DNA of 64,000 bases from Deltaproteobacteria bacterium RIFOXYD12_FULL_56_24 (lineage in GTDB: Bacteria; Desulfobacterota; Desulfobulbia; Desulfobulbales; Desulfurivibrionaceae), in NCBI GenBank assembly GCA_001799285.1, contig MGTD01000008.1:3699-67698 (forward strand), given 5' to 3'. Shown here one piece after another: positions 26,036-61,400 of the stretch. Below the pieces are notes generated by a model. That model saw nothing but the letters and a program-made list of their open reading frames with translations. It was not told the origin of the DNA and did not search any database. Made by a program: the position numbers and the translations under genes. How positions within the stretch are numbered: the first letter of the stretch is position 1; each line of letters begins with the position of its first letter.

Positions 26036-26117
26036 AGAATTTGAATTACGGAAATCGCCCCTGTATGTCCTGGCAAAAACACCTGGCGCAAAAGCCATCC
26101 CGTTTGAAAAATCATGC

Positions 26118-26155
26118 CTATCCAGCTCAAGGCCGGAAACGAATAAAAACAACCC
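26118..26155 (+). repeat. Truncated copy of repeat module D
   Basis: CTATCCAGCTCAAGGCCGGAAACGAATAAAAACAACCC matches 14631-14668 and the inverse at 54110-54147. Confidence 0.8.
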
Positions 26156-29111: not shown

Positions 29112-29999
29112 ATGAGTGCCAAGATTATCAGCGGGACGGAAGTTGCCAAAGCCATCCGGGAAGAATTGCAGGCCGAGGTCGCCGTGCTTAAGGAGAAACA
29201 TGATATTGTCCCTGGCCTGGTGACGATCCTGGTGGGTGAAGATCCGGCCTCTCAATCTTACGTGAGCGCCAAAAACAAGACTGCCCATGCGCTCGGCATC
29301 CATTCCGAGCAGGTAACCTTGCCAGCCGACACCAGCGAGCAGGATCTTCTGTCCATTGTCGAGAAATTTAACAAGGACAAGAATATCCACGGCATTCTCG
29401 TGCAGCTGCCCCTGCCCAAGCATATTAATGAAACCAATGTGTTATATGCCATTGATCCGGCCAAGGACGTGGATGGATTTCATCCGGTGAATGTGGGCAA
29501 GATGGTGGTGGGCGAGGAGTGCTTTCTGCCCTGCACGCCCCACGGCATCCTCGAGCTGCTGATTCGCAGCGGGGTGGAAACCAGCGGCGCAGAGGTGGTG
29601 GTCATCGGACGCAGTAATATTGTCGGCAAGCCCATCGCCAACCTGATGCTTCAGAAGCGTAAAGGCGGCAACGCCACGGTTACCCTGTGCCATACCCGGA
29701 CCAAGGACATGGCCGCCCATTGCAAGCGTGCTGATATTATCATCGCCGCGGTCGGGGTGCCGAAGATGGTGACCGCCGACATGGTGAAGGACGGGGTGGT
29801 GATAATCGATGTCGGGGTGAACCGGATTGGTAAGACCGCGGACGGCAAGGCCATTCTTGCCGGGGATGTGGATTTTGATGCGGTAAAGGAAAAAGCCTCG
29901 TATATTACCCCTGTTCCGGGGGGGGTCGGGCCGATGACCATCACCATGCTTATGAAAAATACCGTACAGGCAGCCAGGCAGACCGCGAGCCTGAAATAG
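29112..29999 (+). CDS. folD: Methylene-THF dehydrogenase/cyclohydrolase
   Basis: GILVQLPLP, KDVDGFHP, PCTPHG, IGRSNIVGKP, TPVPGGVGPMT. Confidence 0.97.
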   Translation: MSAKIISGTEVAKAIREELQAEVAVLKEKHDIVPGLVTILVGEDPASQSYVSAKNKTAHALGIHSEQVTLPADTSEQDLLSIVEKFNKDKNIHGILVQLPLPKHINETNVLYAIDPAKDVDGFHPVNVGKMVVGEECFLPCTPHGILELLIRSGVETSGAEVVVIGRSNIVGKPIANLMLQKRKGGNATVTLCHTRTKDMAAHCKRADIIIAAVGVPKMVTADMVKDGVVIIDVGVNRIGKTADGKAILAGDVDFDAVKEKASYITPVPGGVGPMTITMLMKNTVQAARQTASLK

Positions 30000-30016
30000 A
30001 CTAAAACAATCCCACG

Positions 30017-30148
30017 GTAACTGTTCAGCAGTGCCGCAGATGCGTGTGTCAATTGTCGGCAGCAGTGCCGACCAAGAGGTCTGCGAAGTGTGCTATTGCA
30101 CATGAGCAGGCCGATGACAAAGCAGATGTGGTGCTGCTGAACAGTTAC
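30017..30148. repeat. Family B variant with different interior (132 bp)
   Basis: GTAACTGTTCAGCAGTGCCGCAGAT..ATGTGGTGCTGCTGAACAGTTAC. Confidence 0.8.
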
Positions 30149-30178
30149 ATAGCGAACCCAAGATGCTGAGGACATACG

Positions 30179-32176: not shown

Positions 32177-32198
32177 TATTTTTTTGAAGCAAGAATAA

Positions 32199-32250
32199 AG
32201 CTGAGTTGAGCAGCTTGCCTGCTCAAACGAAACTTATACCCTTTGGGTGA
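32199..32250 (+). repeat. Repeat family A, short form
   Basis: AGCTGAGTTGAGCAGCTTGCCTGCTCAAACGAAACTTATACCCTTTGGGTG between cooS and metF-acsD. Confidence 0.88.
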
Positions 32251-32265
32251 AAAGGATCATAACCG

Positions 32266-34911: not shown

Positions 34912-34980
34912 GTTCTGAAATTGTGCACTTACCGATCGTAGCGCTGAAAAGCGTAACGGATTAAAGAGGAGAAAAACAAA

Positions 34981-37185
34981 ATGTCTAAGATCATCTGTTC
35001 AGCCGCCATTCGTGGGGCTCACAAGATTGTGGATATGGCGGAGGCCAAATTCGAAGAGGCCCTCAAGAAGTACGGCCCCGAACAGGAGGTTGGTTTTCCC
35101 AACACCGCCTACTTTTTGCCGATTATTTACAGCATGCTGGGTGCCAAGGTGCAGAATCTCGGCGACATGAAGGATATTTTCCGGGAATGCCGCACCCTTT
35201 TACCGCAAGAGGTGAGCAACAACACCTGGCTGCCGTACCTCGCCCCGGCCTTGGATGCGGGCATGGCCACCTTTTTTGCCGAGGAGATGTACGAGGCCAT
35301 CCGCTATCTCGAGACCCCGGATTTTTATACCAAGACCGAAGATCCGCTGGAGAACAACATCTGGCTGGGCGCTGCCGACGACGTAATCTTCCGTAAGCGC
35401 GGCGTTGAGTTCGTGGACGGCACGGCACCCGGTTTTGCCGCCATCATGGGCACTCCGGACGACAATGAGGTTGCCTCACGGATCGCCCTTGAGCTCCAGG
35501 AGAAGAATCTCTACATCTTCATGCACGACCAGAGTAACGGCAAGAACATGGCCGAACGGTTGATGGAAAACAAGGTGCAGGTCGGCTGGAACACCAGGCT
35601 GGTGCCCTTTGGCAAGAGTTACACCTCGGCGGTCTTCGCAATCGGCTTTGCCTGCCGGGTGGCCATGGCTTTCGGCGGCATCAAGCCCGGCGACTACCGG
35701 GGCAACCTGATCTACAATAAAGACCGGACCTTTGCCTTTATCATGGCCTTTGGACCGGTTTCCGACGAGTGGTACGCCAATGCGGCCGGCGCCATCAACT
35801 GGGGATTTCCCACCATCTCCGACTATGATATTCCCCAGGTGCTACCCACCGGGATCTGCACCTACGAACACGTGGTCAGCCAGGTGCCCCACGCGGAGAT
35901 CGTCCAGAAGGCCATTGAGGTGCGAGGCCTCAAGGTCAACGTCACCAAGATCGACATCCCCATGTCCTTCGGCCCGGCCTTTGAGGGCGAGCGGATTCGC
36001 AAGGACGACCTCTTCATGGAATGCGGCGGCGGCCGGACTTCCGCGGTGGAGGTGCTGATTTCCAAGGAGATGTCTGAGGTGGAGGACGGCAAGGTTACCA
36101 TCGAAGGCCCGGATATCAAGGACATCGAGCAGGGCAAAAATCTGCCTATCGCCATTCTGGTTGAGGTTGCCGGGCGCGGGATGCAGTCGGACTTCGAACC
36201 GATCCTCGAGCGCCAGTTCCATCACCTGATGAACTACATCCAGGGCATCATGCACATGGGCCAGCGGAACATCATGTGGATCCGCATCGGCAAGGCTGCG
36301 GTGGAAAAGGGCTTTTCCTTCACCCATCTCGGCAAGGTGCTGCACGGCAAGCTGCATCAGGAGTTCGGCGCCATTGTCGACAAAATCCAGGTCAAGATTT
36401 ACACCGAACTGGACAAGGTGGAAGAGGTCCAGGAGTTGGCCCGCAAGGTGTACGCGGAGCGCGATGAGCGTCTTGGTTCCATGACCGACGAGACCGAGGA
36501 GATTTTCTACTCCTGTACCCTGTGTCAATCTTTTGCTCCGAGCCATGTCTGCGTAATCACCCCGGAGCGGATCGGCATGTGCGGCGCTTATAACTGGCTG
36601 GACGGCAAGGCCTCCTTTCAGATTAACCCCACCGGTCCCAATCAGCCGATCCAGAAGGGTGATTGCCTGGATGAGAAACTCGGCATCTTCAAGGGAATCA
36701 ACGATTTTGTCGAGCAGACTTCCCGCGGGGCTGTGCCCGAACTTGCCCTCTATTCCCTGATGAACAGCCCGATGACCGCCTGCGGCTGTTTCGAGGCCAT
36801 TGCCGCCATGCTCCCCCAATGCAACGGGATCATGGTGGTCAACCGTGACTTCAGCGGCATGACCCCTTCCGGGATGAAGTTCACCACCTTGGCCGGCATG
36901 GCGGGCGGCGGCGCCCAGACCCCTGGTTTTATCGGGGTTTCCAAGCATTTTATGACCAGTCCCAAGCTGTTTGTCGCCGAGGGTGGGCTCAAGCGGATGG
37001 TCTGGCTTCCCAAGATGATGAAGGAAGAGATCAAGGACAAGCTCATGCAGCGCTGCAAGGAAATAGGCATGCCGGAGTTTTACGACATGATCGCCACAGA
37101 GGAGAACGGCACCACGGAAGAGGAAATCCTCGCCTTCATGAAAAAGGTCGGTCATCCGGCTCTGGAAATGGAATCCGTTGTTTAA
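34981..37185 (+). CDS. acsB: Acetyl-CoA synthase subunit
   Basis: GFPNTAYFLP, CTLCQSFAPSHVC, CGAYNW, PMTACGCFE A-cluster ligands. Confidence 0.97.
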   Translation: MSKIICSAAIRGAHKIVDMAEAKFEEALKKYGPEQEVGFPNTAYFLPIIYSMLGAKVQNLGDMKDIFRECRTLLPQEVSNNTWLPYLAPALDAGMATFFAEEMYEAIRYLETPDFYTKTEDPLENNIWLGAADDVIFRKRGVEFVDGTAPGFAAIMGTPDDNEVASRIALELQEKNLYIFMHDQSNGKNMAERLMENKVQVGWNTRLVPFGKSYTSAVFAIGFACRVAMAFGGIKPGDYRGNLIYNKDRTFAFIMAFGPVSDEWYANAAGAINWGFPTISDYDIPQVLPTGICTYEHVVSQVPHAEIVQKAIEVRGLKVNVTKIDIPMSFGPAFEGERIRKDDLFMECGGGRTSAVEVLISKEMSEVEDGKVTIEGPDIKDIEQGKNLPIAILVEVAGRGMQSDFEPILERQFHHLMNYIQGIMHMGQRNIMWIRIGKAAVEKGFSFTHLGKVLHGKLHQEFGAIVDKIQVKIYTELDKVEEVQELARKVYAERDERLGSMTDETEEIFYSCTLCQSFAPSHVCVITPERIGMCGAYNWLDGKASFQINPTGPNQPIQKGDCLDEKLGIFKGINDFVEQTSRGAVPELALYSLMNSPMTACGCFEAIAAMLPQCNGIMVVNRDFSGMTPSGMKFTTLAGMAGGGAQTPGFIGVSKHFMTSPKLFVAEGGLKRMVWLPKMMKEEIKDKLMQRCKEIGMPEFYDMIATEENGTTEEEILAFMKKVGHPALEMESVV

Positions 37186-37297
37186 TTTTCAGATATAAGC
37201 TGTCGGCTTTAAGCTGTCAGCGATACGATTCATGATTAATATTTAAGCTTAAGGCTTATAGCTTAGAGCTTGCCCCTTATACTGGAGGAACAGACAG

Positions 37298-38653
37298 ATG
37301 GCTTTAACAGGTATTCAAATCCTCAAAATGCTCCCCAAGAAAAACTGTGGGGAGTGCGGTATTCCGACCTGTCTCGCCTTTGCCATGAAGGTGGCGGCCG
37401 GGCAGATGGAAATTGGCGAATGCCCGTATGTGAGCGATGAGGTCAAGGAGCAGATCGGTGAGGCTTCCGCCCCTCCGATCCGGACTGTTAAAATCGGCAC
37501 CGGGGACAGCGCCTATACCACCGGCGGCGAAACCTGTCTCTTTCGCCATGAAAAGCGTTTCGAGAACCCCACCGGCATAGCGGTGCTGGTTACCACGGAG
37601 ATGAACGAGGCCGAGGTCGAGGGGAGGATCAGCCGGTTCAAGAGCCTCCGTTACGAGCGGGTCGGCGTTCTGCTCAAGGCCGACCTGATCGCGGTCAAGG
37701 ACAGCAAGGGCGATGCTGCCGCCTTTACCGCCCTGACCAGGATGGTACTGGATGGCGCCCCCGATGCCGGACTCATCCTGATGAGCGACAATCCCGATAA
37801 CCTCAAGGCAGGTGCTGCCGCCTGCGGGGAACGCAAGCCGCTCCTTTATGCCGCCACCGCTGCCAATGCTGAGGCCATGGCTGCTGTGGCCAAGGAGACC
37901 GGCTGCCCACTGGTTGCCAAGGGTGTAAACCTTGACGAGACCGTGGCGATTTCCGAGAAACTGCTGGCCGCCGGGCTCAAGGATTTGATGCTCGACAGCG
38001 GCGCCCGCACCATTCGGGCCGCCATGGAAGACAGCGTGGTGGGCCGGCGTTCCGCCATCCGGGCCAAATTCAAGCCTCTGGGTTTTCCGACCATCACCTT
38101 TCCCTGTGAGATCTCCACTGATCCGCTGATGGAGGCCATGGTCGCCTCGGTGCTTATTGCCAAATACGCCGGGATCATCGTTCTCTCCGACCTTCAGGGC
38201 GATATCCTCTTCCCACTGTTGCTGGAGCGGCTCAATCTCTTCACCGATCCGCAGCGGCCCATGGTGGTTCAGGAAGACGTCTACAACATCAACGGCCCAA
38301 CCGAAGATTCCCCGGTGCTGATCACCTGTAATTTCTCCCTTACCTACTTCATCGTCTCGGGCGAGATTGAGGGGAGTAAGGTGCCTTCCTGGCTGCTGAT
38401 TAAGGATACGGAAGGGCTTTCGGTTCTAACTGCCTGGGCGGCCGGCAAGTTCGGCGCGGACATGATCGCGGCGTTCATGAAGAAGTCCGGAATCGAGAGC
38501 AAGGTCAAGCATCGGGAGCTCATTATCCCCGGTTACTTGGCCTCCATGAAGGGCGAGCTTGAGGAAGAGCTGGCCGGCTGGACCATTACCATCGGTCCCC
38601 GCGAAGCCGGACATCTTCCTGCCTTTTTGAAGGAATGGAAGCCAGCGGCATGA
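37298..38653 (+). CDS. acsC: Corrinoid Fe-S protein large subunit
   Basis: LPKKNCGECGIPTCLAFA FeS motif, ITCNFSLTYF, GLSVLTAWAAGKF. Confidence 0.97.
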   Translation: MALTGIQILKMLPKKNCGECGIPTCLAFAMKVAAGQMEIGECPYVSDEVKEQIGEASAPPIRTVKIGTGDSAYTTGGETCLFRHEKRFENPTGIAVLVTTEMNEAEVEGRISRFKSLRYERVGVLLKADLIAVKDSKGDAAAFTALTRMVLDGAPDAGLILMSDNPDNLKAGAAACGERKPLLYAATAANAEAMAAVAKETGCPLVAKGVNLDETVAISEKLLAAGLKDLMLDSGARTIRAAMEDSVVGRRSAIRAKFKPLGFPTITFPCEISTDPLMEAMVASVLIAKYAGIIVLSDLQGDILFPLLLERLNLFTDPQRPMVVQEDVYNINGPTEDSPVLITCNFSLTYFIVSGEIEGSKVPSWLLIKDTEGLSVLTAWAAGKFGADMIAAFMKKSGIESKVKHRELIIPGYLASMKGELEEELAGWTITIGPREAGHLPAFLKEWKPAA

Positions 38654-38793
38654 TCCCGAGTATTGGATGCTGAGTGCTTCGCAGTGGGATTATAGCTCAT
38701 ATAGGTCCTATAAGACTTATAAATCCTAAATGATCTGTTTTGCCCGACTGTAACGCCCTGTTGCAGGGGCAATTATCACCATTAGGTTTTCTG

Positions 38794-41700
38794 ATGATAA
38801 ACATCGAGATCAACGGCTTGCAGATAGCCGCCGAAGAAGGGATCACCATCCTGGAGGCGGCAAAGCGAGCGGATATCCATATCCCGACCCTGTGCTATGT
38901 GAACAAGGGTACCTCGGACATCCCGTGTGAGCTCTGCGTGGTCAGCGTGGAAGGGCTGGAAAAGCCGGTGCGCTCTTGTGTAACCACGATCTGTGAAGGG
39001 ATGCGGATCAGCACCGAATCCAAGGAACTGCAGGCCAAGCGCACCGAGCGGTTGACCATTCTGATGGAGACCCATTTCGGCGATTGCAAGGCGCCCTGCA
39101 ACCTTACCTGTCCAGGGCAGATCAATGTGCAGGGCTACATTGCCCATGTGGCCAAGGGCCAGTACGAAGAGGCTCTGCGGTTGGTAATGGAGCGCAACCC
39201 TTTTCCCTTTTCCGTGGGGAGAGTGTGCCCCAGGTTCTGCGAGACCAGGTGCCGCCGGATTCTCGTGGATGAACCGGTGTCCATCAACCATCTCAAGCGC
39301 TTTGTCGCTGACTGGTGCATGGCCCACAAGATCGACCTGCGTATTCCCCGCGACCCGGCCACCGGCAAAAAGATCGCCGTTATCGGCGGTGGTCCTTCCG
39401 GCCTGACCGGTGCCTATTATCTTGCTCGCAAGGGCCATGATGTCACGGTGTTCGAGTCCTCGCCCAAACTCGGCGGCATGTTGCGCTACGGCATCCCCAA
39501 CTACAAGATTCCCCAGGACGTGCTTGATTACGAGATCAACACCATTTTGCGCATGGGGATCAATGTCCGCTTGAGCCAGAAGTGGGGCGAAGATTTCACC
39601 CTGCAATCCCTCAAGAATCAAGGCTACGAGGCCATCCTCATCGCCACCGGCACCCCGGTGGACGAGAGCCTGGATGTGCCGGGTTGCGCCCTGCCCAAGG
39701 TGATCCCGGCCACCAAGTTTTTGCGGGACATGTCCGAGGGTAAAGGCGGCAGCTACGGCAGCTCCGCGGTGGTTTTCGGCGGCAACAATATCGCCATGGA
39801 GGTTGCCCGCTCCTTGTTGCGTAAGGAGGTCAGCCAGGTAACGATCATTTATCCCCGGGCCCAGTCCGAGATGCCGGCCAACCAGCGCAATATCCGGGTG
39901 GCCGAGAAAGAAGGCGTCCAGTTTCTCCTCATGGCCTCGCCGGTGAATTTCCGGGATACCAATCACGGCATCGATGTGCAATTGATCCGCACCAAACTCG
40001 GAGAGCCGGACGAGAAAGGCATCCGCTACCCCGAAGCGATCCCCGGCTCCACGGTGAATATCCAGGCTGATACCGTCATTGTCGCGCAAGGCTTGAGCGC
40101 CTGTCGCGACAAGTTCGAGGGCGACCAACTGGAGGCTAGCCTGGAGCTGACTCCTAAATGCAACATTAAGGCCAATCCCAGAACGTCTCTGACCAACCAT
40201 CCCGGAATCTATGCGGCCGGGGATGTGACCAGCGGTCCCCGCACGGTGATTCAGGCCGTGGTCGCGGCCCGGCGGGCGGCGGAAAATATTCATGCCCAGG
40301 TCATGGGCCTTACCAACAAGACCGTGGCCGAAAGCCGCTTCAACTTCAGCCGGGGAAAGAGTTTTGATGATGTGGATCTGCGGAATTTTGAGGGGATCAA
40401 CATCAAGCTGCGGGAAAAGATGCCCACCAGACAGCCGCAGATCGCCACCCAGGATTTCGGCGAGATCAAGCTCGGCTTTTCGGAGCAAATGGCCATCACC
40501 GAGGCCAAACGTTGCCTGTCCTGCGGCTGTCGGGCCTTTGACCGTTGTGAACTGAAAAAACAGGCCATGGACTTCGGCCTGGATCCAAGCCGGACCGGGA
40601 TGGCGGCCAAGCCGACCTACATGGAAAAAATCAAGCATCCCATGATTCTGGTGGATCTGAACAAGTGCATCTATTGCAAGCGCTGTCAGAACAGCTGCGA
40701 ATATGATGCCCTGGAAATCAGCGCCGACGAGGTCGATGCCAAGGGCCGCCCCCTGGGGCTGCGTTTTCGCTTTAATGAAAAGTGCGTCAACTGCGGAGCC
40801 TGCGTGGATAATTGCTCTACCGGGGCGCTGAACAAGAAAGACGCCCTGGTGCCGGTGGTCAACGAACCCATCCGCGAGGTTCCCTCCACCTGCCCATACT
40901 GCGGGGCCGGCTGCCAGATCATCCTCAGGGTGAAGGGCAATACCCTGATGGAAGTCACCTCGGATCCGGATCTGGCGCCCAATTACGGGGCACTCTGCGT
41001 CAAGGGGCGGTTCGGGCATAATTTTGTCCAGCACAAGGATCGTTTAACCAAGCCCTTGATTCGCCTGGGCTCCCAATTGGTGGAGACAAGCTGGGAAGAG
41101 GCCCTGAATGTGGTGGCCAAGGGATTCTTCGATATCAAGGCCATGTACGGTCCTGATGCCATTTCCGGTTTCAGCTGTGCCCGGGCCAGCAACGAAGAAA
41201 ACTATCTGATGCAAAAATTCATGCGGACAGCGATCGGAACGAATAATATCGATCACTGCGCCCGACTCTGACACGCTCCCACGGTGGCCAGTCTGGCCCT
41301 CACCTTCGGCAGCGGCGCAATGACCAACTCCATTGCAGATACGAAAAAAACCGATCTCTTCTTCATGGTCGGCAGCAACCCGGACACCAGCCATCCGACC
41401 ATCGGCCTGCGCATTCATCAGGCCCTGGACCGGGGGGCGAAACTGATTGTGGTGGATCCCCGCCGGACCAGATTGGCCGAGCGGGCCGATCTCTGGCTGC
41501 GGATTCAGCCGGGGACCGATGTCGCCTTTTTAAACGGGATGATGCAGGTCATTATCGAGGAAGATCTCTGGGACAAGAAATTTGTCGAGGAGCGGACCGA
41601 GGATTTTGACGAGCTTGTCCGGCTGGTCAGGAAATACACCCCGGAGATGGTGGAGAAGATCACCGGCATTAACGAAGTCCAGCTGCGCCAGGCTGCCCGG

Positions 41701-42915
41701 ATGTATGCGGCGGAAGGGCGGCACGCTGCTTTCTGGGGCATGGGCATCACCCACTACGTCACCGGCACGGACCGGGTGAAATCCATCGCCGGCCTGACCA
41801 TGCTTTGCGGCAAGATCGGCAAGGAAGGCACCGGCTGCAATCCTCTCCGTGGCCAGAACAACGTGCAGGGCGCCTGTGACATGGGCGCCCTGTTCAATAC
41901 CCTTCCTGGCTACGGCGGCCTGGAAAACGATGAGCTCTTTGACCGGTATGAAAAGCTCTGGGGCATAAAACTGCCCCGGCGTCCCGGTAAACCGGCCACC
42001 GAGGTCTGGGATAATGTCTTCAAAGGTAATATCCGCGGTCTCTATATCTTTGGCGAAGATCCGGCCGTGGCTGATGCCAATATCGCCCATGTCCAGTCGG
42101 CCCTGGAAAAGGTCGATTTTCTGGTGGTTCAGGATATTTTCCTGACCGATACCGCGAAGATGGCCGACGTGGTATTGCCTGCCGCCTGCTACGCGGAAAA
42201 AGACGGCACCTTCACCTGCACCGAGCGGAGGGTCCAGCGGATTCGCAAGGCGGTTGAACCGCCGGGCGAGGCCAAGCCGGACTGGCAGATCATCTCCCAG
42301 CTTTCCCAGCGGATGGGCTATCCCATGCATTATAATTCCGCTTCGGAAATCTTTGACGAGATCTGCCAGCTACTGCCGCAGTACAAAGGGTTGTCCTATG
42401 AGCGGCTGGAAAAAGTCGGCCTGCAGTGGCCGGTGCCGGACCAGGATCATCCCGGCACTGAGATTTTGCATGTTGACACCTTCAGCCGGGGCAAGGGGCT
42501 GTTCATTCCGGAGGATTATTTCCCCCCGGTGGAATTGCCCGATGAGGATTATCCGCTGCTTTTCACCACCGGCCGCGATCTTGCCCGGTATAATTTCAGC
42601 AGCATGACCGGCAAGACCCCGGAGATCGACGAGGTCAGCCCGGAGTGTTTTGCCGAGGTGCATCCGCGTGATGCCGAGCGGTTGGGACTCAAGGAAAAAA
42701 ACTGGGTGCGGCTTACCTCGCGGCGCGGTTCGGTGCAGATGCGAGCCACCATCACCGACCGGACCCAGGAGGGCACCATCTTCAGCACCTATAATCATTT
42801 GCAGGCGCTGGTAAACATGCTTACCCTGGATGCACTGGATCGTCTTTCCCGGACTCCGGAGTACAAGCTGTGCGCCATCAAGGTTGCAGTTCTGGGAGAT
42901 GAGCTGCCGGAGTGA
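38794..42915 (+). CDS. fdhA: Selenocysteine formate dehydrogenase alpha subunit fused to N-terminal 2Fe-2S, GltD-like FAD/NAD(P) and 4Fe-4S domains (Sec at 41269-41271)
   Basis: ORFs 38740-41271 and 41284-42915 are in frame across TGA: NIDHCARL-U-HAPTVASLA, the Mo/W ligand position; GRVCPRFCE, GGGPSG, CPYCGAGC; no Tat signal. Confidence 0.9.
41283..41304 (+). promoter_or_regulatory. SECIS-like hairpin of fdhA
   Basis: GGTGGCCAGTCTGGCCCTCACC beginning 11 nt after the UGA. Confidence 0.75.
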
Positions 42916-49007: not shown

Positions 49008-51047
49008 TTACGCGGCTGTCATTTTTTCCACCCGCACCGCGCAAACCTTGTACTCGGGACAGCCGGAGCCGGTGTCAAAGGCGTTGTTGGTGATCAGGTT
49101 GATGGGCGCTTCGTGGAAGTGGAAGGTGGTGTAGACCATGCCCTGGTCTACCTGCTCGGTGATCTCGGTGGCCAGACTGATCTCGCCCCGCCGGGAAACA
49201 AGCCGCACCGTCTCGCCCCGGCGAAGGCCAAGGGCCATGGCGTCCGCCGGGTTGATCTGGAGCAGGGCCTGGCCGCTTTCCCTGCTCAACCGCTCGCTTT
49301 TGCGGGTCATGGTGCCGGTATGATACTGATGATAGATCCGGCCGGTCATCAACAATAACGGATAATCCAGATCGGGCAGCTCGCCGGGCTCGATGTGGCT
49401 GGTCGGCATAAAGTAGCCCTTCCCCCGGGTGAAGTAGTACTTGTGCAGAAAGGGGGTGCCCGGATGGTCGCGGTCCCAGCAGGGCCACTGCAAGCCCCAG
49501 CCCCGGTCCAGCCGGTCATGGTAGATGCCGCCGTAGATGGGGGCGAGCAGGGCGATCTCCTCCATGATCTCGGCGCTGGAGTCGTAATCCATGGCATAAC
49601 CCAGACGGTTGGCCAAGGCGATGATGATTTCGCTGTCGGCGCGGCACTGACCAGGCGGCGCTACCGCCCGGCGCACCATCTGTACCCTGCGTTCCGTGTT
49701 GGTGAAGCTGCCGCTTTTTTCGGCAAAACAAGCGGCTGGGAAGACCACCTGGGCAAGCTGCGCCGTTTCGGTGAGAAAGATATCGCTCACCGCCAGAAAA
49801 TCCAGGCCTCGCAGGGTTTCTTCCACCTTGGTCAGGGTGGGGTCGCTGAGCATGGGATTCTCGCCCATGATGTACATGCCGCGGATCGCTCCCTGGCCGC
49901 CGCCGTGGGTCATCTCCACCAGATTCAGGCCGCGGGCCGCCGGTAACCTCGTCCCCCAGGCCAGTTCGAATTTTTCCCGGAAATCCTCGTTATGCACCGG
50001 CTGGTAACTTGGCAGCATGTTGGGCAGCGCCCCCATGTCGCAGGCACCTTGCACGTTGTTCTGGCCCCGAAGCGGATCGACCCCGGTATCCTTCTTTTCG
50101 ATGTGGCCGGCCAGCATGGCCAGGTTGGCGATAGTCTGCACATTCTCGGTGCCGCAGACGTGCTGGGTAACGCCCAGGCAGTAACAGATCACCGCCTTGC
50201 GGGCCCGGCCATAGAGCAGGGCTGCCTGGCTGATCAGGGCCAGCGGCACGCCGGTGAGAGCGGCGGTTTTGGCAAGGTCCAGGCGGTGGAGCATGTCGCG
50301 CAGCGCCAGAAAGTTTTCGGTGCGCATCTCGATGAACAGTTCATCGGCCAGCCCCTCGTCCAGGAGTACCCGCATCATGGCATTGAGCAGGAGGATGTCG
50401 GTACCGGGGCGCAGGGCCAGATGGAGATGGCTGCACTCAGCCAGTCGGGTGCGGCGCGGGTCGATGACGATCAGTCGGGCGCCGCGGTCCACCGCGCCAA
50501 GCATCCGGCGGGCCACCTGGGGGTGAGCCTCGGTGGTGTTGGAGCCGGAGACCAGAATCACCTCGGCGTTTTCGATCTCGTTGATGGAGTTGGTCATGGC
50601 CCCGCTGCCGAAGGAGGTGGCAAGACCTGCCACCGTAGGAGCGTGTCAGAGTCGGGCGCAGTGGTCCACGTTGTTGGTGGCAAGCGCGGTGCGGGCAAAC
50701 TTTTGCAGGAGGTAGTTTTCCTCGTTGGTACACTTGGCCGAGGCCAGCACGCCGATGGCTTGGCCGCCCGAGCTGTCGCGGATGCGACCCAGCTGCTCTG
50801 CGGTAAAATCGAGGGCCTCCTCCCAGGTGGCCGGGGTGAGAAGGCCGCCTTTGCGGATGAGCGGGGTGGTGAGCCGATCAGGATGGTTGATGGATTCGTG
50901 GATGTGCCAGCCCTTGACACATAGATTGTCCCGGGAGACCGGGTGGTGCCGGCTGGCCTGGCTGCCGCAAACTTTACCCTCCTCCACCTGCAGGTAGAGA
51001 CCGCAGCCACAACCGCAGTAAACACAGGTGGTCAGCACATCATGCAT
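49008..51047 (-). CDS. fdhA: Second selenocysteine formate dehydrogenase alpha subunit, FdhF-like (Sec at 50646-50648)
   Basis: ORFs 50646-51050 and 49008-50633 in frame: NVDHCARL-U-HAPTVAGLA; CVYCGCGC..C FeS motif, LRGQNNVQGACDMG; no Tat signal. Confidence 0.92.
50616..50634 (-). promoter_or_regulatory. SECIS-like hairpin of the second fdhA
   Basis: Minus strand GGTGGCA-GGTC-TTGCCACC, 11 nt after the UGA. Confidence 0.8.
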
Positions 51048-54151: not shown

Positions 54152-54571
54152 CTATCTGCCGACGCCAATTTTTTCCTCTCGGATCTTGAGACACTTGCGG
54201 CTGAAGTCATCAAATTCTGCGCAGGTTTTCAGCACAAAAGCATTCTGGCCGGGATAAAAGGTGCATTTGCTCTGGTAGTCGCAGGTGTTGCCGAAAGAAT
54301 CCCAATGCTGGCACTCTTCGACACATTCCAGATCGCCATAACTGTGGATGGTTTTTTCAAAGAGACATTTTTTGGTAAAATCGTCCCAGTACTGGCACTC
54401 GCGCACAGCCATGGTCTGGCCGGATGCCCTGGCCTGCCCCCCTTCGCAGATCACCGTAAGATCCCGGTCACGGTAGACCTCTCCTTTTTTCAGTCGTACC
54501 TCTCTGGCCCCGCTGCTGACGGGAAGGGAAACAAGGAAAACAGCCAGGAGGAGGAACAGGCGCGGATTCAT
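54152..54571 (-). CDS. Secreted cysteine-rich hypothetical protein
   Basis: ATG at 54571 with AGGAG RBS; signal peptide; three CxxW/FDxFxxxC repeats. Confidence 0.75.
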   Translation of the reverse strand: MNPRLFLLLAVFLVSLPVSSGAREVRLKKGEVYRDRDLTVICEGGQARASGQTMAVRECQYWDDFTKKCLFEKTIHSYGDLECVEECQHWDSFGNTCDYQSKCTFYPGQNAFVLKTCAEFDDFSRKCLKIREEKIGVGR

Positions 54572-54660
54572 GGTCGTCTCCTTTTTACGAGCAGCACCGA
54601 AAACGGGACGCTCCCGTATTAATTGGTTCTCCCGGAGCTTAAATGGAAACAAGATTGCCC

Positions 54661-55591: not shown

Positions 55592-57919
55592 TTATTTCTC
55601 CCTGGCCGTAATTTGCAATGATTCAAGGTAAGGAAGGATAAATCTGAACCGGGTTCCTTTCCCGAGGGTCGAGTCCACCTCAATTATGCCGCCCAACCTT
55701 TCCGTTTCCATGCGGACCGCCGCCAAACCTACGCCGCGGCCGGACAGCTCGCTTACTTCCTCCTTGGTGGAGAACTCATCTTCAAAGATCAGCAGGCGCA
55801 GCGCATCTTCGTCCAGAGCACCACCCTGTTCCGGGGTGAAAAGACCTGCGGCTACCCCTTTGCGGCGGATCGCCTCAAGATCAAGGCCGCGGCCGTCGTC
55901 GTTGATCTCGAGTATGATCCGGTCATCATCCATAAAAGTACGGCAGCTGAGGTGGCCTTCCTCCTCCTTGCTCTGCGCCAGCCGTTCCTCCGGGGTCTCA
56001 AGACCGTGATCCACTGCGTTGCGGAAGAGATGGATCAGCGACTTGGTAAAGGGGCTGTAAATCTCCGGGGCGACCCGCACCCCGTTGTCCTCCACCTCGA
56101 CCGGAGCCAGCTCCTTTTCCAGCCGCTCGGCCAGACGCACCGCCGTCTTGGCGTGTCCCGAAAGCAGGTCGCCGAAGGAGACATAGCGCAACCGCTTGAT
56201 GAGTTGCAGCATCTCCCTGGTCTCTTCGGAATCAAGGGACGGCCCCTTGGCCTGCAAGAGTCGGTCGGCCAAATGCTCCAGCATTTCGGTCTGCTCAGGC
56301 GTCAGGGAGAGATGGCCGCGCCGGGCAAAAAAGGCATCGCCCAGGGTCTCCTGAAGCACGGCCAGTTCCTGGGCCAGGGCCTGATCGGCCAGGGCCTGCT
56401 CATGTTCGAGCAGAGCCCGGTCCGGATGTTGTCTGGCCAGATCGCGGCGCAGCCGGTTGAGGGCGGATTCGTATTGATGGAGACGGCGCGGCAGGTGCAG
56501 GAATTCCAGCTGCCCGAAAAGCCCCTTGAAGGTGTGAACCTGGCGGTAAATCTCGGCCAGACCGGCGGCCAGTTCCTCGTCCGGGGCGGCCAGCAACCGG
56601 GGCAGGGTGTTTTTGCTGAAGTTCTGGTAATCGTCAAGAACCTCGAACAGATCTGCCGATTCGGTAGCCGCGGCCACGATGAAGCGCAGGCGGATCTGCT
56701 CTTCCGCCACCCGGGCCTCAAGGCGGCGCTGCTCGGTGATATCGGTGATGATCAGCATCAGCCTCCTGTCGCCCAGCAGGCGGTAGGCGATATCCAGATA
56801 ACGCTCGTTGAGATATAGCTCCTTGGGCATCAGCGAGAGGAGGATGTCGCGCTGAAATTCGTCAGCGGTTTGTACGATCAGCTGAATATTGGCGCCGAAA
56901 CGCTCCCGTTCCTCTTCATCTTCAGGAAAGAGCAGGGCGGCCACGGATTTGCCGGCCACCTCCCCATTAAAAAAGGTCAGGCATTCCCGACTGTATTCCG
57001 GCTCGACTTCCAGGTCCGGACCGAAGGAAAGAAAGCCCTGTCCCGAGTTGTTGAGCAGGCCGGAGAGGCGGTCGCTCTTGTCGGCAAGTTGGCGCCGGGT
57101 AATGAGAATGCGCCGGTACATGGTGGCGATGATAAAGGTGACCAGCAGCACCACCGTGCCATTGCCCAGCAAAATGTAGAGAAGTTGCCGGGTGCTTTCC
57201 CTGGTTCTCTGCAAGAATGCGGCTTTGTCGATGGTCACCCCCAAAACCCCGGCGGTCTCGCTGATCTGCCAGTAAGTATGGCAGACGGTGCATTTGCCTT
57301 CCACCGGGATGCGTTCGTAAAAATGGGCCACGCGGTCTTCCAGCACCTCGGCCCGGTTCCGGTCGTTAAAGCGGAGATTTTTATCCAAAACGAAATGGCA
57401 TTCGGCGCAGGATTTCCCCTGTACTTTTGCCAGATGAGCCTGCCCGGCAGCGGAATCGAAACGGCCGGCCAGGTGCCAGTCCCGGCGTAGGAACATCCCC
57501 CTGGTTTTTTCGTACAGGTCAAGGTTGGGGTTGATCAAGACGCCTTTTTCATCGTGGACAAAGGGCAGCCCCACCGTAACCGTGCCGGAACGGTAGTTCA
57601 TCAAGCCTTCGCGGGGATAAAGGGTGGTGGCGGTTACTCCTTCCAACTGGGCGGTGTTGTCCATCACCAGCTGAAAGGTCTTACGCTGGCCTTTCTCGAT
57701 GGAATCGCGGGTCTGGGAGACATAGCTGGTGAGGATGCCGCTGCCCTGCTCGCGGATGGTGCGATTCATCATCTGCTTCTGGTAGTAATGAAAGACCAGC
57801 CCTGCCACCACCGAAATCAGTAACAGGCAGGAGAAGGCGATCAAAAGAAAACGCGGCACCACCCGCTCGGGGTTGGGCTCCCGGTTGCCAGGTTTCGGTT
57901 TTTCCATTTCCGGCCTCAT
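55592..57919 (-). CDS. Membrane sensor kinase: periplasmic diheme domain, PAS-like, HPt, CheA-type HATPase (no CheW domain)
   Basis: TM1, CAECH and CTVCH, TM2, LNNSGQGFLSF, HPt YRQVHTFKG, HLFRNAVDHGLE, DDGRGLD, FSTKEEVSELSGRGVGL. Confidence 0.85.
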   Translation of the reverse strand: MRPEMEKPKPGNREPNPERVVPRFLLIAFSCLLLISVVAGLVFHYYQKQMMNRTIREQGSGILTSYVSQTRDSIEKGQRKTFQLVMDNTAQLEGVTATTLYPREGLMNYRSGTVTVGLPFVHDEKGVLINPNLDLYEKTRGMFLRRDWHLAGRFDSAAGQAHLAKVQGKSCAECHFVLDKNLRFNDRNRAEVLEDRVAHFYERIPVEGKCTVCHTYWQISETAGVLGVTIDKAAFLQRTRESTRQLLYILLGNGTVVLLVTFIIATMYRRILITRRQLADKSDRLSGLLNNSGQGFLSFGPDLEVEPEYSRECLTFFNGEVAGKSVAALLFPEDEEERERFGANIQLIVQTADEFQRDILLSLMPKELYLNERYLDIAYRLLGDRRLMLIITDITEQRRLEARVAEEQIRLRFIVAAATESADLFEVLDDYQNFSKNTLPRLLAAPDEELAAGLAEIYRQVHTFKGLFGQLEFLHLPRRLHQYESALNRLRRDLARQHPDRALLEHEQALADQALAQELAVLQETLGDAFFARRGHLSLTPEQTEMLEHLADRLLQAKGPSLDSEETREMLQLIKRLRYVSFGDLLSGHAKTAVRLAERLEKELAPVEVEDNGVRVAPEIYSPFTKSLIHLFRNAVDHGLETPEERLAQSKEEEGHLSCRTFMDDDRIILEINDDGRGLDLEAIRRKGVAAGLFTPEQGGALDEDALRLLIFEDEFSTKEEVSELSGRGVGLAAVRMETERLGGIIEVDSTLGKGTRFRFILPYLESLQITAREK

Positions 57920-58875
57920 TTTGCGGATCCTTTCGGCATGACCCCTGCCATGGCCTTGGCCTCAGCGTGGGTGTGGTAGAGCAGGGGACGGGGAAAAAGT
58001 TCGCTGGCGCAGCCGATACAGGGATGGCCGGCCCGGATGCAGTTGTTGGTGTTGCCGTTGTAGCCGAGGGCAATGCAATCGTTGTAGGTCACCGGTCCCT
58101 GACAGCCTAATTCCATCAGGCAACCCTCCTCGCCAATGCGCTGGGCGAAATCGCGGGCCTGAAAGGCGGCGTAGCGGGGGCAGCGCTCGTGGACCGAATG
58201 GGAGAAGAAGCGTCGCGGTCGCCGGGCGTCGTCCAGCTCCGGCAGCCTCTTGGTCTTGATGAAATAGAGCAGGGTGTAGACCAGATGGTCGGGGTGCATG
58301 GGGCAGGACGGCAGGTTGACCGAGGGGGTCTTGATGGCCCGCTGTTTGAGAAAATCATCCAGGGATTTGGCGCCCGTCAGGGTGCCGGCCATTGTCGCCA
58401 CGCCGCCCGAGACGGCGCAGGTGCCGGCGGCGATACAGAGCGAGGCTTTGGCGGCCAGCAGAGCTGCCCATTCGCTGATGGGCTTATGGGCCAGCATGCA
58501 GGCATGGGGCATGCCCACGGGGATGGCGCCCTCCATGACCAAAATGTACGGTTTGCCGGAAGCGGCCAGCTTGTTCAGGATCTGCGGAACCTGATCCCCG
58601 GAGGCCGAAGAGAGATCAGGATGGTACACCAACCGGGTGAAATAAGTAAGAAAGTCCAGAATGGTGATCTGCTCGACATTAAGCAGCGAGGTGGAGCAGC
58701 CGGAACAGGACGCCCCATGCAGCCAGATCAGGTTGGGTCGGGACCAGCCGGCAGCCGCGGGTTTGGCCTCGGCGGCCAGCAACTCGTCGAAGGAGATGAG
58801 CGGCGCGGCCCCGGCCGCAATCACCAACTGATAGATTCTTTGCAGAAATTTTCGTCGATCCAGGGTTATGGTCAT
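57916..58875 (-). CDS. [NiFe]-hydrogenase small subunit with Tat signal
   Basis: DRRKFL twin-arginine motif, CSGC, GTC, SCP, HERCP..CLMELGCQGP, NDC..NNC..HPCIGC. Confidence 0.92.
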   Translation of the reverse strand: MTITLDRRKFLQRIYQLVIAAGAAPLISFDELLAAEAKPAAAGWSRPNLIWLHGASCSGCSTSLLNVEQITILDFLTYFTRLVYHPDLSSASGDQVPQILNKLAASGKPYILVMEGAIPVGMPHACMLAHKPISEWAALLAAKASLCIAAGTCAVSGGVATMAGTLTGAKSLDDFLKQRAIKTPSVNLPSCPMHPDHLVYTLLYFIKTKRLPELDDARRPRRFFSHSVHERCPRYAAFQARDFAQRIGEEGCLMELGCQGPVTYNDCIALGYNGNTNNCIRAGHPCIGCASELFPRPLLYHTHAEAKAMAGVMPKGSAK

Positions 58876-58876: not shown

Positions 58877-60430
58877 TTAATGCACCGAGCAAGCGATACA
58901 AGGATCGGTGGAGCGGACGATGCGGGCCAGTTCCAGTGGGTTGGCCGGATCAGCGATCCGGGTGCCGATCAGCATCTTTTCCACCGCTCCCGGCTGCCCG
59001 GAGGAATCGCGAGGGCCCATATTCCAGGTGGTGGGCATCACCATTTCATAGTTTTTGATCAAGCCCTTATTGTCGATTTCCACCCAGTGCCCGAGGGCGC
59101 CGCGCGAAGCTTCAGTGATTCCGATTCCCCGCACGTTTCTGGGCACTTCCTTTTCTATAAAACCGAGAACCCCCGGTCGGACCTGCTCAAGATGTTCCTT
59201 GAGCCGCCCGATCAACAATGTAACCGTAATATACCGGCTTAAATGGCGGCCCAGCACCGAATTGTAGTCTGTAAGTGCGATGCCGAGATCCCGATTGAGT
59301 CGGTCCACCAGCTTATTTAAGGCCGGATTGCGACCGGAGTGATAAGTGTTTACCACCCGGGCCGCCGCCCCGGTTTCCATGACCTTGCCCCCATAGCGGG
59401 GGGCGCGGCTCCAGCTGTATTTGCCGTCCGGTCGCTGTTCCTCTCGCTGGAACTGTTTCCAGTCGAGGGGCTCGAGCCGGCTTGCCCCCAAGGGTTTGAT
59501 CCCTGCCCCAGGCTTGTTTTGGTAGTAGCTGTAGGTGTGATCCTCGGTAATGGCATTGAGGTCGAGGGGTGAGCGTTTCCCCTCAATGGTCGCGCCGCCG
59601 GCAAAGAAATGGTTCTTGCCGGATGAGTCTGGGAAATAGGGAAACGAGAGAAAATTGCCGTAGCCGCGCCCTTCCTGGAAATAGCCTGGAAAACCCTTGC
59701 TCACCGCCAAAATGTCTTCCCGATAGCAGGTGTGGACAAATCGCTCGACCCGATTGAGCAAGGTGCGGTATTTGGCAAGATTGTCGATGGTCGGCCGGGT
59801 CGTGACCCCGCCGGCCTCAATGGCCACGGGGTGGGGCGATTTGCCTCCGAACAGGGCCACCATTTTGTGCAGGTCGGCCATTATGGCAAATGATTCCAGA
59901 TAATTGCGCACCGCCGATAGGTTGGCGGTTGTATCCTTGAGGAAATCTCCCTGATAACGGGGGAGAAAGGGGGCTGCGGGAAAAATCCGTTGGGAGCGGG
60001 TTTCGCTGCGCACCCAATCGCGCATCGTGGTTAAGCCGGGATCCGCACCCCGGTACTTCAGCACCGCGGTTACGTCGATGAAATCCAGGGCGCTCAACTG
60101 GTAAAAATGCAGCAGGCAATCCTGCACCTGATACGCGCCGACAATGAGGTTGCGAAGCAGTTGCCCGTTGGCATTGAGATGGATGCCCATGGCGTTTTCC
60201 AGGGCCAGGGCCGCCGCTTCCGCGTGGGCATACGGACATACCCCGCAGACCCGCTGGGTCAACTGCAAGGCGGTGCGGGGATCATAGCCGATAAGTGCCT
60301 TTTCGATGCCGCGAAAGAGCATGCCCGAAGTCCGGGCCGAGGCAACCACTCCGTTTTCGACCCGGGTTTCGAACTTGAGATGCCCTTCTACCCTGGTCAG
60401 GGGATCAATGGTTATTTTGGTTGTGGTCAT
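58877..60430 (-). CDS. [NiFe]-hydrogenase large subunit ending at the L2 histidine
   Basis: IDPLTRVEGH, L1 QRVCGVCPYAH, L2 DPCIACSVH followed directly by TAA. Confidence 0.95.
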   Translation of the reverse strand: MTTTKITIDPLTRVEGHLKFETRVENGVVASARTSGMLFRGIEKALIGYDPRTALQLTQRVCGVCPYAHAEAAALALENAMGIHLNANGQLLRNLIVGAYQVQDCLLHFYQLSALDFIDVTAVLKYRGADPGLTTMRDWVRSETRSQRIFPAAPFLPRYQGDFLKDTTANLSAVRNYLESFAIMADLHKMVALFGGKSPHPVAIEAGGVTTRPTIDNLAKYRTLLNRVERFVHTCYREDILAVSKGFPGYFQEGRGYGNFLSFPYFPDSSGKNHFFAGGATIEGKRSPLDLNAITEDHTYSYYQNKPGAGIKPLGASRLEPLDWKQFQREEQRPDGKYSWSRAPRYGGKVMETGAAARVVNTYHSGRNPALNKLVDRLNRDLGIALTDYNSVLGRHLSRYITVTLLIGRLKEHLEQVRPGVLGFIEKEVPRNVRGIGITEASRGALGHWVEIDNKGLIKNYEMVMPTTWNMGPRDSSGQPGAVEKMLIGTRIADPANPLELARIVRSTDPCIACSVH

Positions 60431-60476: not shown

Positions 60477-61400
60477 TCAACACGGGATCTCCTCGCCTGC
60501 TTCCACCCGATTACGTCCTTTTCCCTTGGCCCGGTAAAGCGCATCGTCCGCCCGCCTGAGCAGGGCTTCCTCGTCGTCCGCAGGACGAAAGGCGGCAACC
60601 CCGAAACTGGCGGTTATCCGGCCTATAACCGGGAATCTGGCCTCTTCTACACAGGCGCGCAACTGTTCGGCCAGAAACATGCCCCCGTTTGCATCGGTTT
60701 CGGGACAGAGGAGCATAAATTCCTCTCCGCCCCAGCGCCCAACCACATCAGTGGCCCGGCTGTGCTGCCGCAGAAGGGCGGCGGTTGCCGCCAGCACCTC
60801 GTCGCCAGCCTGATGGCCATAGGTGTCGTTTACTGCCTTGAAATGATCAATATCCAGCATGACCAAGGCAAAAGCGGTACCGTTACGCCGGGATCTTGCC
60901 AATTCGTCGGCCAGCCGTTCGTCCAGTTTGTTGCGGTTGCCGAGCCCGGTAAGGCGATCGGTCACCGAGAGCAATTCCAGCTCGCGGCTCTTTAGAGCCA
61001 GCTGGGCATGGGCTTCGGCCAGGGAATTCTGAATCTGCTTTATGGACGAGATGTCCACCACCACGGAGTATTTAACGATCTTGCCATCCGACCAAAAGAT
61101 GACCTGCTCATGATGCTGATACCAGCACTCGTCCACGTCGTTGTAATGTTCGTGGACAATAACTTCGCCGGTTGGCTGCCCCTCACCGGTGATCAGGAGC
61201 TTGAGCTTGCAATGGGGACAGGGGCCCTCACCCTGGTGGAGCAACTCCCAGCAACGGGCATCGGTGTAATCGCCGGTAACGCCGTAGCGCTCGGCCATAA
61301 AGGGGTTGAGATAAACCAGACGATAGCTGGTCGCATCCACCGCGTAGATTCCGAAAGGTAAATTGTCGACAAGGACTAGGGGCAGTTGTGGCTGAATCAT
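60477..61400 (-). CDS. PAS-like + GGDEF diguanylate cyclase
   Basis: TDRLTGLGNR, MLDIDHFKAVNDTYGHQAGD, RWGGEEF, LYRAKGKGRNR. Confidence 0.93.
   Translation of the reverse strand: MIQPQLPLVLVDNLPFGIYAVDATSYRLVYLNPFMAERYGVTGDYTDARCWELLHQGEGPCPHCKLKLLITGEGQPTGEVIVHEHYNDVDECWYQHHEQVIFWSDGKIVKYSVVVDISSIKQIQNSLAEAHAQLALKSRELELLSVTDRLTGLGNRNKLDERLADELARSRRNGTAFALVMLDIDHFKAVNDTYGHQAGDEVLAATAALLRQHSRATDVVGRWGGEEFMLLCPETDANGGMFLAEQLRACVEEARFPVIGRITASFGVAAFRPADDEEALLRRADDALYRAKGKGRNRVEAGEEIPC

Follow-up and report, generated by a model that had tools for sequence, protein, structure and literature searches.

The hydrogenase operon

The DNA analysed here (the window) is a 64-kb stretch of 64,000 nucleotides (nt) from Deltaproteobacteria bacterium RIFOXYD12_FULL_56_24, contig MGTD01000008.1, and our subject is an operon within it that joins a [NiFe] hydrogenase to a membrane kinase with two motifs for the attachment of haem c (Table 1). 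All genes of the operon lie on the minus strand, and positions are numbered over the whole 64-kb stretch. An earlier reading, made from the sequence alone, had singled out the large subunit for four features: an L2 motif that runs straight into the stop codon, a gene placed before that of the small subunit, a group-1-like L1 motif (QRVCGVCPYAH) and an arginine segment that reads EASRG rather than EAPRG. All four were borne out and, as they are direct readings of the sequence, chance is no issue. The large subunit ends in ...RSTDPCIACSVH, then TAA, and the ATG of the small subunit (58873-58875) comes one base past that stop, a tight coupling in the order large then small; the whole chain of large subunit, small subunit, kinase, CheX and CheY genes is held together by overlaps or by gaps of at most 2 nt. 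The ligands of an [NiFe] heterodimer are in place, with the Cys pairs of L1 and L2 in the large subunit and the proximal CSGC, the distal His-Cys set (HERC) and the medial Cys ligands retained in the small one, and the active site is encoded with Cys, not selenocysteine.

Table 1. Coordinates of the hydrogenase operon, its motifs and the gene upstream of it.
Feature	Positions	Strand	Basis or remark
[NiFe] hydrogenase large subunit, 517 amino acids (aa), without C-terminal extension	58877..60430	-	PF00374 E 2.9e-133; best PDB match 1yrq_H, 319 bits
L1 motif RVCGVCPYAH, aa 60-69, two Ni-binding Cys	60224..60253	-	motif reading
EASRG segment, aa 440-444, with the conserved active-site arginine	59099..59113	-	motif reading
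L2 motif DPCIACSVH, the final nine codons	58880..58906	-	stop codon TAA at 58877-58879
[NiFe] hydrogenase small subunit, 319 aa	57916..58875	-	PF01058 + PF14720; TIGR00391 188.6 bits (cutoff 179.5); PDB 1h2a_S 185 bits
Predicted twin-arginine translocation (Tat) signal peptide, aa 1-37: DRRKFLQ (58840-58857), hydrophobic stretch, LLAAEA	58765..58875	-	aligned to 1h2a_S
Medial-cluster ligands NNCIRAGHPCIGC, Cys at the usual Pro position	58009..58047	-	alignment to 1h2a_S/1h2r_S
Membrane sensor kinase, 775 aa, 4-nt overlap with the small-subunit stop	55592..57919	-	HATPase_c; 106 bits to 4xiv_A; two transmembrane segments (TM1, TM2) and two CXXCH
Periplasmic sensor domain, aa 43-245	57185..57793	-	no Pfam family above threshold
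TM1, aa 24-42	57794-57850	-	
TM2, aa 246-264	57128-57184	-	
First haem-c attachment motif CAECH, aa 171-175	57395..57409	-	C..CH invariant in 10 diverse transducers and five more checked
Second haem-c attachment motif CTVCH, aa 210-214, followed by invariant T and W	57278..57292	-	the single motif kept in the single-haem clade
HTFKG, aa 462-466, candidate phospho-accepting His of an Hpt domain	56522..56536	-	weak Hpt match, E 0.012
CheA-type ATP-binding domain, aa 627-764	55628..56041	-	no CheW-like P5 domain after it
CheX-like CheY-P phosphatase, 176 aa	55059..55589	-	PF13690 E 2.3e-11; 2-nt gap after the kinase gene
Stand-alone CheY-like receiver, 132 aa	54661..55059	-	PF00072 E 4.1e-27; best NCBIfam model CheY_Halo, below cutoff; 1-nt overlap with CheX
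Small secreted Cys-rich protein, probably 139 aa from MNPRLFLLL	54152..54652	-	no Pfam match; possibly the operon's last gene
PAS-GGDEF diguanylate cyclase, 46 nt upstream of the large subunit	60477..61400	-	PF00990 E 2.9e-45

The best match of the small subunit is the precursor from D. vulgaris Miyazaki (1h2a_S), and the alignment spans the signal peptide, with RRKFLQ opposite RRDFLK. An [ST]RRxx[LI]K motif followed by a hydrophobic stretch and LLAA[DE] recurs in each of the 22 small subunits that we inspected, the most divergent copies varying slightly, and no C-terminal hydrophobic membrane anchor was found in the small subunits. At the level of this motif, judged by alignment and conservation, the small subunit appears to be exported by the Tat pathway and the enzyme to be periplasmic and soluble. 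A Cys opposite the standard Pro predicts a [4Fe-4S] medial cluster, an expectation that reportedly goes back to mutagenesis of the Pro beside the [3Fe-4S] cluster in D. fructosovorans. This Cys is conserved in the 12 genome-locus small subunits that we read; four more-divergent metagenome copies gave no match to the medial-cluster pattern.

The C-terminal part of the kinase corresponds to the P3-P4 dimerisation and ATP-binding core of T. maritima CheA (4xiv_A). The protein ends 11 residues past the ATPase domain, has its own transmembrane sensor and is accompanied by no CheW gene in the operon; an Hpt domain is listed for its D. dismutans orthologue (locus L021), and CheX follows the kinase in every Desulfurivibrionaceae locus whose contig is long enough. 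The periplasmic sensor domain is well conserved: ten diverse representatives are 32-61% identical to the one in the window and share 28 invariant columns, made up of both CXXCH motifs and 22 others, which hold across Desulfobacterota, Gamma- and Betaproteobacteria, Campylobacterota, SAR324 and Chrysiogenota. His 162 and Met 107 are nearly invariant and could serve as distal haem ligands. In a Pfam scan no family reached threshold, the haem region giving sub-threshold matches to cytochrome c7, class III c3 and MtrC-type families, and a profile search of PDB sequences returned non-significant matches only (Desulfovibrio high-molecular-weight cytochrome c, c3 and Tll0287). An AlphaFold model built with five sequences (predicted local distance difference test score 68, predicted template-modelling score 0.60) consists of a long helix and then a sheet; around the haems it is poorly defined, the local score falling below 50. 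Its weak Foldseek matches are all extracytoplasmic PAS/Cache-type sensors (WalK, Tlp3, DctB, KinD), the haem-c sensors GSU0935 and GSU0582 among them, and we lean towards a PAS/Cache-like fold.

At the edges of the operon the picture is less uniform. The PAS-GGDEF cyclase upstream has an orthologue (82-89% identity) in the directly upstream position only in the closest relatives, L001/L025 and L029, and its membership in the system is doubtful. The Cys-rich protein at the other end has a signal-peptide-like start, MNPRLFLLLAVFLVSLPVSSGA, and many Cys; its gene is kept near the operon in Desulfurivibrionaceae at a variable position, directly downstream in L001, at a distance of about 0.7-0.9 kb on that side in L002, L003 and L005, and on the upstream side in L006 and L016. 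A scan for promoters and terminators gave counts no higher than in shuffled sequence.

A widespread family of tail-less enzymes

A search of 5.8 billion proteins returned 2248 homologues of the large subunit at E <= 1e-20, and we inspected the best 120 of these. They are 58-93% identical to the query and nearly all 500-542 aa long. No residue follows the L2 His in 118 of the 120, RVCGVCPYAH is present in 89, and the arginine segment reads EATRG in 85 and EASRG in 35, with no other version; the tail-less end and EA[TS]RG recur in 14 additional metagenome copies. Among the named sources are Desulfurivibrionaceae, Desulfurivibrio dismutans, Thiocystis violacea, Sulfurimonas, Sulfurospirillum, Rhodoferax, SAR324 and Desulfurispira natronophila. 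When the library is clustered at 50% identity, the entire family collapses to one representative (1086 bits), the next protein being at 421 bits and 43% identity; among these nearest relatives outside the family (43-44% identity), the tail-bearing ones have tails of 14-16 residues and mostly read EAPRG. The tail-less end, L1 and EA[TS]RG are thus traits of a tight and widespread clade and not oddities of one gene, a point that the sequence-only reading had missed; its question of whether the closest homologues also end at the His and share the gene order is answered by the 118 tail-less proteins and by an order of large then small wherever both genes are present in the 23 genome loci compared. 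No family member was found in a collection of plasmids, where the best match had 35% identity.

A subclade at about 50% identity, seen in the metagenome loci L047, L048, L049, L050 and L051, has an extra Cys within L1 (R[TA]CGCCPYAH), and the proximal-cluster motif of its small subunits is CDGC, not CSGC; L053, a fragment related to these, lacks the L1 region. Several copies look broken and may reflect assembly errors or decay: L054 has a single open reading frame (ORF; 5353-6336) that fuses a large-subunit fragment to a sensor fragment, the kinase is in two pieces in L009 (9154-11567), and small and large subunits are split in L033 (160-1087) and L044 (778-3288).

Relation to the known hydrogenase groups

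Group assignment was based on bit scores to solved structures and to HoxC, on motifs and on HoxC-rooted trees, and by these the enzyme is nearest to group 1, as had been proposed. Among PDB structures, the large subunit scores 319 bits with the group 1b enzyme of D. fructosovorans and 313 with a [NiFeSe] enzyme (1a), followed by Hyd-2 (1c, 288), A. vinosum (1e, 286), Hyd-1 (1d, 260) and Huc (2a, 183); the regulatory HoxC of Cupriavidus necator (group 2b, on pHG1) gives 218 bits at 30% identity. The closest NCBIfam model, NF033181, reaches 523 bits, under its cutoff of 600. Two traits of group 1 were looked for and not found: a cleavable tail with its cognate endopeptidase, absent as zero residues after the His and as a gene from the window and 54 related loci, and a respiratory partner (cytochrome b, HybA/Isp or soluble cytochrome c3), of which there is none in the operon of the window. 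In the gene lists of the related loci, the position of the respiratory partner is occupied by a signalling transducer, and we found no defined tail-less subgroup with an established respiratory role among the closest homologues.

Sequence and context place the enzyme in neither group 2b nor group 2c. Membership in group 2b was ruled out by the low identity to HoxC, the Tat signal, the type of partner and the residues of the gas channel: the corresponding positions read CGVC and HFYQL here and CGIC and HFYLF in HoxC, where the Ile of CGIC and the Phe of HFYxF are, we assume, the residues that narrow the channel of the Ralstonia sensor. Group 2c, brought up by the PAS-GGDEF gene upstream, has the L2 consensus SFDxCLVCTVH (PMC4853749). 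L2 here reads STDPCIACSVH and does not fit it, and the GGDEF neighbour is not conserved, so this candidate was rejected as well.

Synteny of the hydrogenase and the haem transducer

Starting from the hydrogenase, we compared 23 genome loci. The order is large then small in all of those having both genes, and the next gene in 21 of 23 encodes the module of transmembrane segment, two CXXCH and transmembrane segment, in divergent orientation in SAR324. What follows the second transmembrane segment varies, and all the output domains are signalling modules. In Desulfurivibrionaceae the output is the Hpt-CheA-like kinase (Hpt plus a CheA-type ATPase) with CheX and CheY; in Sedimenticola selenatireducens, a gammaproteobacterium, a Rhodocyclaceae metagenome-assembled genome, Sulfurimonas, Thiocystis violacea, Desulfurispira natronophila and one additional genome it is HAMP plus MCPsignal; and a third type is seen in P0272 (423 aa, Joint Genome Institute, JGI), where a GGDEF diguanylate cyclase shares one protein with the haem sensor domain. 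Genes for cytochrome b, HybA or Isp were not found near the hydrogenase.

The association was also examined from the other side, with the sensor domain as the sole query against metagenome contigs. Run against protein databases, the haem domain by itself yielded only 1 short protein and its profile 4, apparently owing to a word-index limit. The small subunit lies directly upstream in 26 of the 30 loci recovered, and the large subunit too where the contig reaches. Three of the remaining loci have no upstream DNA and one is a rearranged fragment, which gives 26 of 27 informative loci; as far as the data reach, haem domain and hydrogenase are therefore an obligate pair. The large subunits at these loci are all tail-less with EA[TS]RG, the small subunits that were read keep the RR, and the transducers that were checked keep both CXXCH.

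In Sulfurospirillum sp. 1612 (L022, CP140614.1, 6433-12485) the hydrogenase pair follows genes for a molybdopterin oxidoreductase, a 4Fe-4S subunit and a TorD-like chaperone, possibly a respiratory recruitment of the sensor-type enzyme.

Maturation and evolutionary setting

Neither a hyp gene nor an endopeptidase nor a second hydrogenase was found within the 64-kb window. Complete hyp sets adjoin the cluster in a gammaproteobacterial locus (L010, 1972-9631) and in Sulfurimonas (L018, 1142-9844), both including a homologue of HypX, a factor for aerobic CO-ligand synthesis, and partial sets run up to the contig ends in L037 and L040, again with no endopeptidase gene. A HoxM/HyaD-type endopeptidase gene was not found in the window or in the 54 related loci, even beside the full hyp sets. 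Together with the zero-residue tail, this supports a maturation that would be independent of a protease.

In a HoxC-rooted neighbour-joining tree the family falls among group-1-like sequences, with monophyly in 100 of 100 bootstrap replicates. Its sister group is less clear: a second tail-less lineage takes this place in 36-44% of the bootstraps and P0121, with or without P0123, in about 28%. P0121, the closest tail-bearing relative (Spirochaetota), comes from a cluster ordered cytochrome c3, small, large, cytochrome c3, a layout classic for periplasmic enzymes. Along with the sub-threshold c3 and c7 matches of the sensor domain, this agrees with the replacement of a soluble c3 partner by a tethered haem domain. 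In the second tail-less clade, P0137 (locus L056, ENA contig NODE_3_length_492956, 7001-11009) has the order large, small (with RR), then a methyl-accepting chemotaxis protein (MCP); its large subunit is 485 aa long with L1 reading RVCGVCHEVH, and the shorter periplasmic domain of the MCP has one CXXCH, aligned to the second motif of the window's transducer. P0144, of the same second lineage, has small then large and no transducer. The arrangement in L056 suggests that tail loss, inverted order and coupling to a haem chemoreceptor may predate the family, and this single-haem sister version, if read correctly, would make the design old. Of the convergence proposed in the sequence-only reading, the part relative to group 2b is safe; within group 1 the sister flips between tail-bearing and tail-less chemoreceptor-linked sequences, and the tail may have been lost once or several times.

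Discussion

We think it probable that the hydrogenase, derived from group 1 and acting in the periplasm, senses H2 and signals by way of a haem relay, and is not an energy enzyme. Gene content, motifs, synteny in both directions and conservation are direct observations, and it is the conserved two-haem transducer, with its kinase or chemoreceptor output, that suggests a sensor in the hydrogenase itself. Here we part from the sequence-only reading, which saw an uptake enzyme, catalytic in function, with nothing of a sensor but its maturation; the two-haem signalling partner in the operon indicates that the sensor is the enzyme.

From these observations we infer export, haem attachment, electron transfer, protease independence and output. 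In the mechanism that we propose, the Hyp machinery would insert the cofactor and the tail-less large subunit would pair with the small one without proteolysis, after which the heterodimer would leave the cytoplasm on the small-subunit Tat signal. Soluble and without an anchor, it would oxidise H2 in the periplasm and pass the electrons along a predicted chain of three [4Fe-4S] clusters to the sensor domain and its two c-type haems, whose redox state would set the conformation of TM2 and, through it, the activity of the Hpt/CheA-type kinase. The kinase would phosphorylate the stand-alone CheY-like receiver and CheX would provide the reset, making the pathway self-contained in the window. As the same haem domain sits on HAMP-MCP proteins in most other carriers, the general output would be behavioural, that is, taxis in H2 gradients, and not transcriptional. 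Taken one step further, the genes may represent an undescribed class of [NiFe] hydrogenases, Tat-exported, tail-less, ordered large then small and haem-wired to chemoreceptors or a CheA-like kinase, that underlies H2 chemotaxis in bacteria of at least six phylum-level groups; we put this forward tentatively, as a serious possibility that we would not yet call likely.

Several points weigh against the periplasmic H2 sensor as proposed. Two genomes break the pattern of synteny, Sulfurospirillum sp. 1612 having the hydrogenase pair after a molybdopterin oxidoreductase operon and no transducer, and Rhodoferax having the large subunit alone. The gas-channel residues are Val and Leu, as in ordinary catalytic enzymes, and not Ile and Phe, so fast turnover may also be possible. 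Covalent haem c on the sensor domain is a prediction from motifs, and Foldseek found nothing at E <= 0.001 with the sensor model, itself of medium confidence. The proposed relay would need an oxidant to reset its haems, we know of no precedent for Tat export of a large subunit without the cleavage checkpoint, and in a search for transcript evidence the sequence occurred only in DNA runs (groundwater, soil, landfill and hydrocarbon).

The main rival is a soluble periplasmic uptake hydrogenase that gains energy by supplying the cytochrome c pool of the periplasm, like Hyn/Hys of Desulfovibrio, while the transducer only eavesdrops on this flow of electrons or on the redox state of the periplasm, in a form of energy taxis. 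Its nearest relatives are periplasmic enzymes linked to c3, the residues of the gas channel match those of catalytic enzymes, in Sulfurospirillum sp. 1612 the gene pair is joined to a molybdopterin oxidoreductase operon and has no transducer, and the Wood-Ljungdahl and formate dehydrogenase genes of the window make H2 a plausible growth substrate. Yet no soluble cytochrome, cytochrome b, HybA or Isp partner stands beside the enzyme at the other loci, the transducer is nearly always present in both search directions, and the carriers with adjacent hyp sets have HypX and no respiratory subunits. We consider this explanation unlikely as an account of the system by itself; sensor and uptake roles are not mutually exclusive and could coexist.

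The hydrogenase might also be mere cargo, co-expressed with a transducer whose haems sense O2, nitric oxide, sulfide or redox potential, and chemoreceptors with hydrogenase-free haem-c sensors do exist, the Geobacter proteins GSU0582 and GSU0935 being among our weak fold matches. Such an arrangement is hard to reconcile with a hydrogenase directly upstream in 26 of the 27 informative haem-domain loci and with the conservation of hydrogenase and transducer together over at least six phylum-level groups; and because a chemoreceptor or CheA-like kinase regulates no transcription of its neighbours, a physical partnership best explains the co-location. We hold this alternative to be quite improbable. 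Closest to the original proposal would be a catalytic group 1 enzyme that acquired a protease-free maturation independently and has no sensory role. It agrees with the group-1-like sequence, the tail-less end and the lack of a protease gene nearby, but it ignores the conserved signalling partner and leaves the order of large then small unexplained, an order that travels with the transducer and recurs in the second tail-less clade; we give it very little credence.

As an H2 sensor, the system would combine traits of several known ones. With the regulatory hydrogenases of group 2b (HoxBC-HoxJ-HoxA in Ralstonia/Cupriavidus, HupUV-HupT-HupR in Rhodobacter) it shares a large subunit that ends at the L2 His, the lack of a Pro before the active-site Arg (EAARG in HoxC), a fourth medial Cys that predicts all-[4Fe-4S] wiring and a histidine kinase in the same operon. 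Group 2b differs in having the order small then large, and its HoxB lacks a Tat signal and has a long C-terminal extension, whereas the small subunit here has the signal and a short C-terminus (the HoxB alignment begins only at its residue 35). The partner in group 2b is a soluble PAS kinase that acts on a sigma-54 activator; here it is a membrane protein with putative periplasmic haems and a CheA-type core, acting on a CheY-like receiver or being itself a chemoreceptor. The HynAB and HysAB enzymes of Desulfovibrio (groups 1b/1a, linked to cytochrome c3) provide the best matches for both subunits and likewise have a Tat signal, no anchor and, as predicted here, a c-type haem protein as electron acceptor; the [4Fe-4S] medial cluster predicted here is present in [NiFeSe] enzymes too. 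Periplasmic Hyn/Hys-type enzymes differ in their cleavable tail of 14-16 residues, in EAPRG and in the order small then large, and their acceptor is a free cytochrome used in respiration, whereas here it would be a domain of a signalling protein. To group 2c there is a likeness in the PAS-GGDEF gene 46 nt upstream and in the GGDEF end of the P0272 transducer, but the L2 consensus differs and the GGDEF neighbour is limited to the closest relatives; group 2 enzymes are described as cytosolic. Geobacter GSU0582 and GSU0935 and cyanobacterial Tll0287 share a periplasmic c-haem sensor domain (predicted from motifs here), placed on a chemoreceptor. They differ in carrying one haem each, against two predicted here; the matches to them are non-significant (Foldseek E 0.03-0.1, hidden Markov model E 0.73), and we know of no pairing of these domains with a hydrogenase.

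Our searches of an open-access literature collection turned up no account of a chemoreceptor or haem transducer paired with a [NiFe] hydrogenase, and we put the chance that the module was previously undescribed at roughly one half. To our knowledge, the H2-sensing hydrogenases comprise only cytoplasmic regulators of gene expression (2b), plus candidates (2c and [FeFe] group C), and we know of no receptor for H2 taxis. HydDB distinguishes 29 [NiFe] classes, the sensory ones being 2b (kinase-linked) and 2c (cyclase-linked), and uses the label 'chemotactic (putative)' only for [FeFe] group C2 (PMC5037454). That group is also genetically tied to an MCP as a candidate sensor for H2 taxis; it differs in belonging to an unrelated enzyme superfamily. 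Taxis towards H2 has been documented in the methanogen Methanococcus (PMC3817446) and is suspected in a sulfate reducer (PMC12004927). If the proposed role is correct, the system would supply a receptor for this behaviour and an example of enzyme-coupled redox chemosensing, and it would show Tat export proceeding in the absence of the C-terminal cleavage checkpoint, which is thought to gate the assembly of group 1 enzymes. Swimming towards H2 is testable in cultured carriers, among them Sedimenticola selenatireducens DSM 17993, Desulfurispira natronophila, Thiocystis violacea, Desulfurivibrio dismutans and Sulfurimonas species. In the one search that showed source names, members of the family are annotated as 'Ni,Fe-hydrogenase I large subunit' or 'nickel-dependent hydrogenase large subunit', so surveys of H2 metabolism would probably count these genes as uptake capacity.

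Other features of the window

The only HoxA/HoxJ-like matches in the window, a sigma-54 response regulator and a HAMP-HisKA kinase at 23081-26152 (-), are of the generic NtrC-family kind and unconnected with the hydrogenase. The region of the GGDEF and hydrogenase genes is preceded, a short way upstream, by an IS200-like Y1 transposase of the repetitive extragenic palindrome (REP)-associated type (PF01797; 62108-63043, +). A Wood-Ljungdahl cluster at 29112-38653 (+) encodes FolD, a carbon monoxide dehydrogenase (CODH, Prismane family), an 881-aa MTHFR-CdhD fusion, acetyl-CoA synthase and a CdhD-like subunit, a gene set with which growth of the organism on CO2 together with H2 or formate is plausible. 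Two formate-dehydrogenase-type molybdopterin genes, at 38740-42915 (+) and 49008-~51000 (-), are each read as split ORFs owing to an in-frame TGA within HCARL*HAPTV (41269-41271, +, and 50646-50648, -); both TGAs are most likely selenocysteine codons. Finally, a 773-aa MtrC/MtrF-like multihaem cytochrome (20318-22639, +; PF22113, E 1e-33) carries N-terminal collagen triple-helix repeats (PF01391, E 4.5e-7), an unusual combination.

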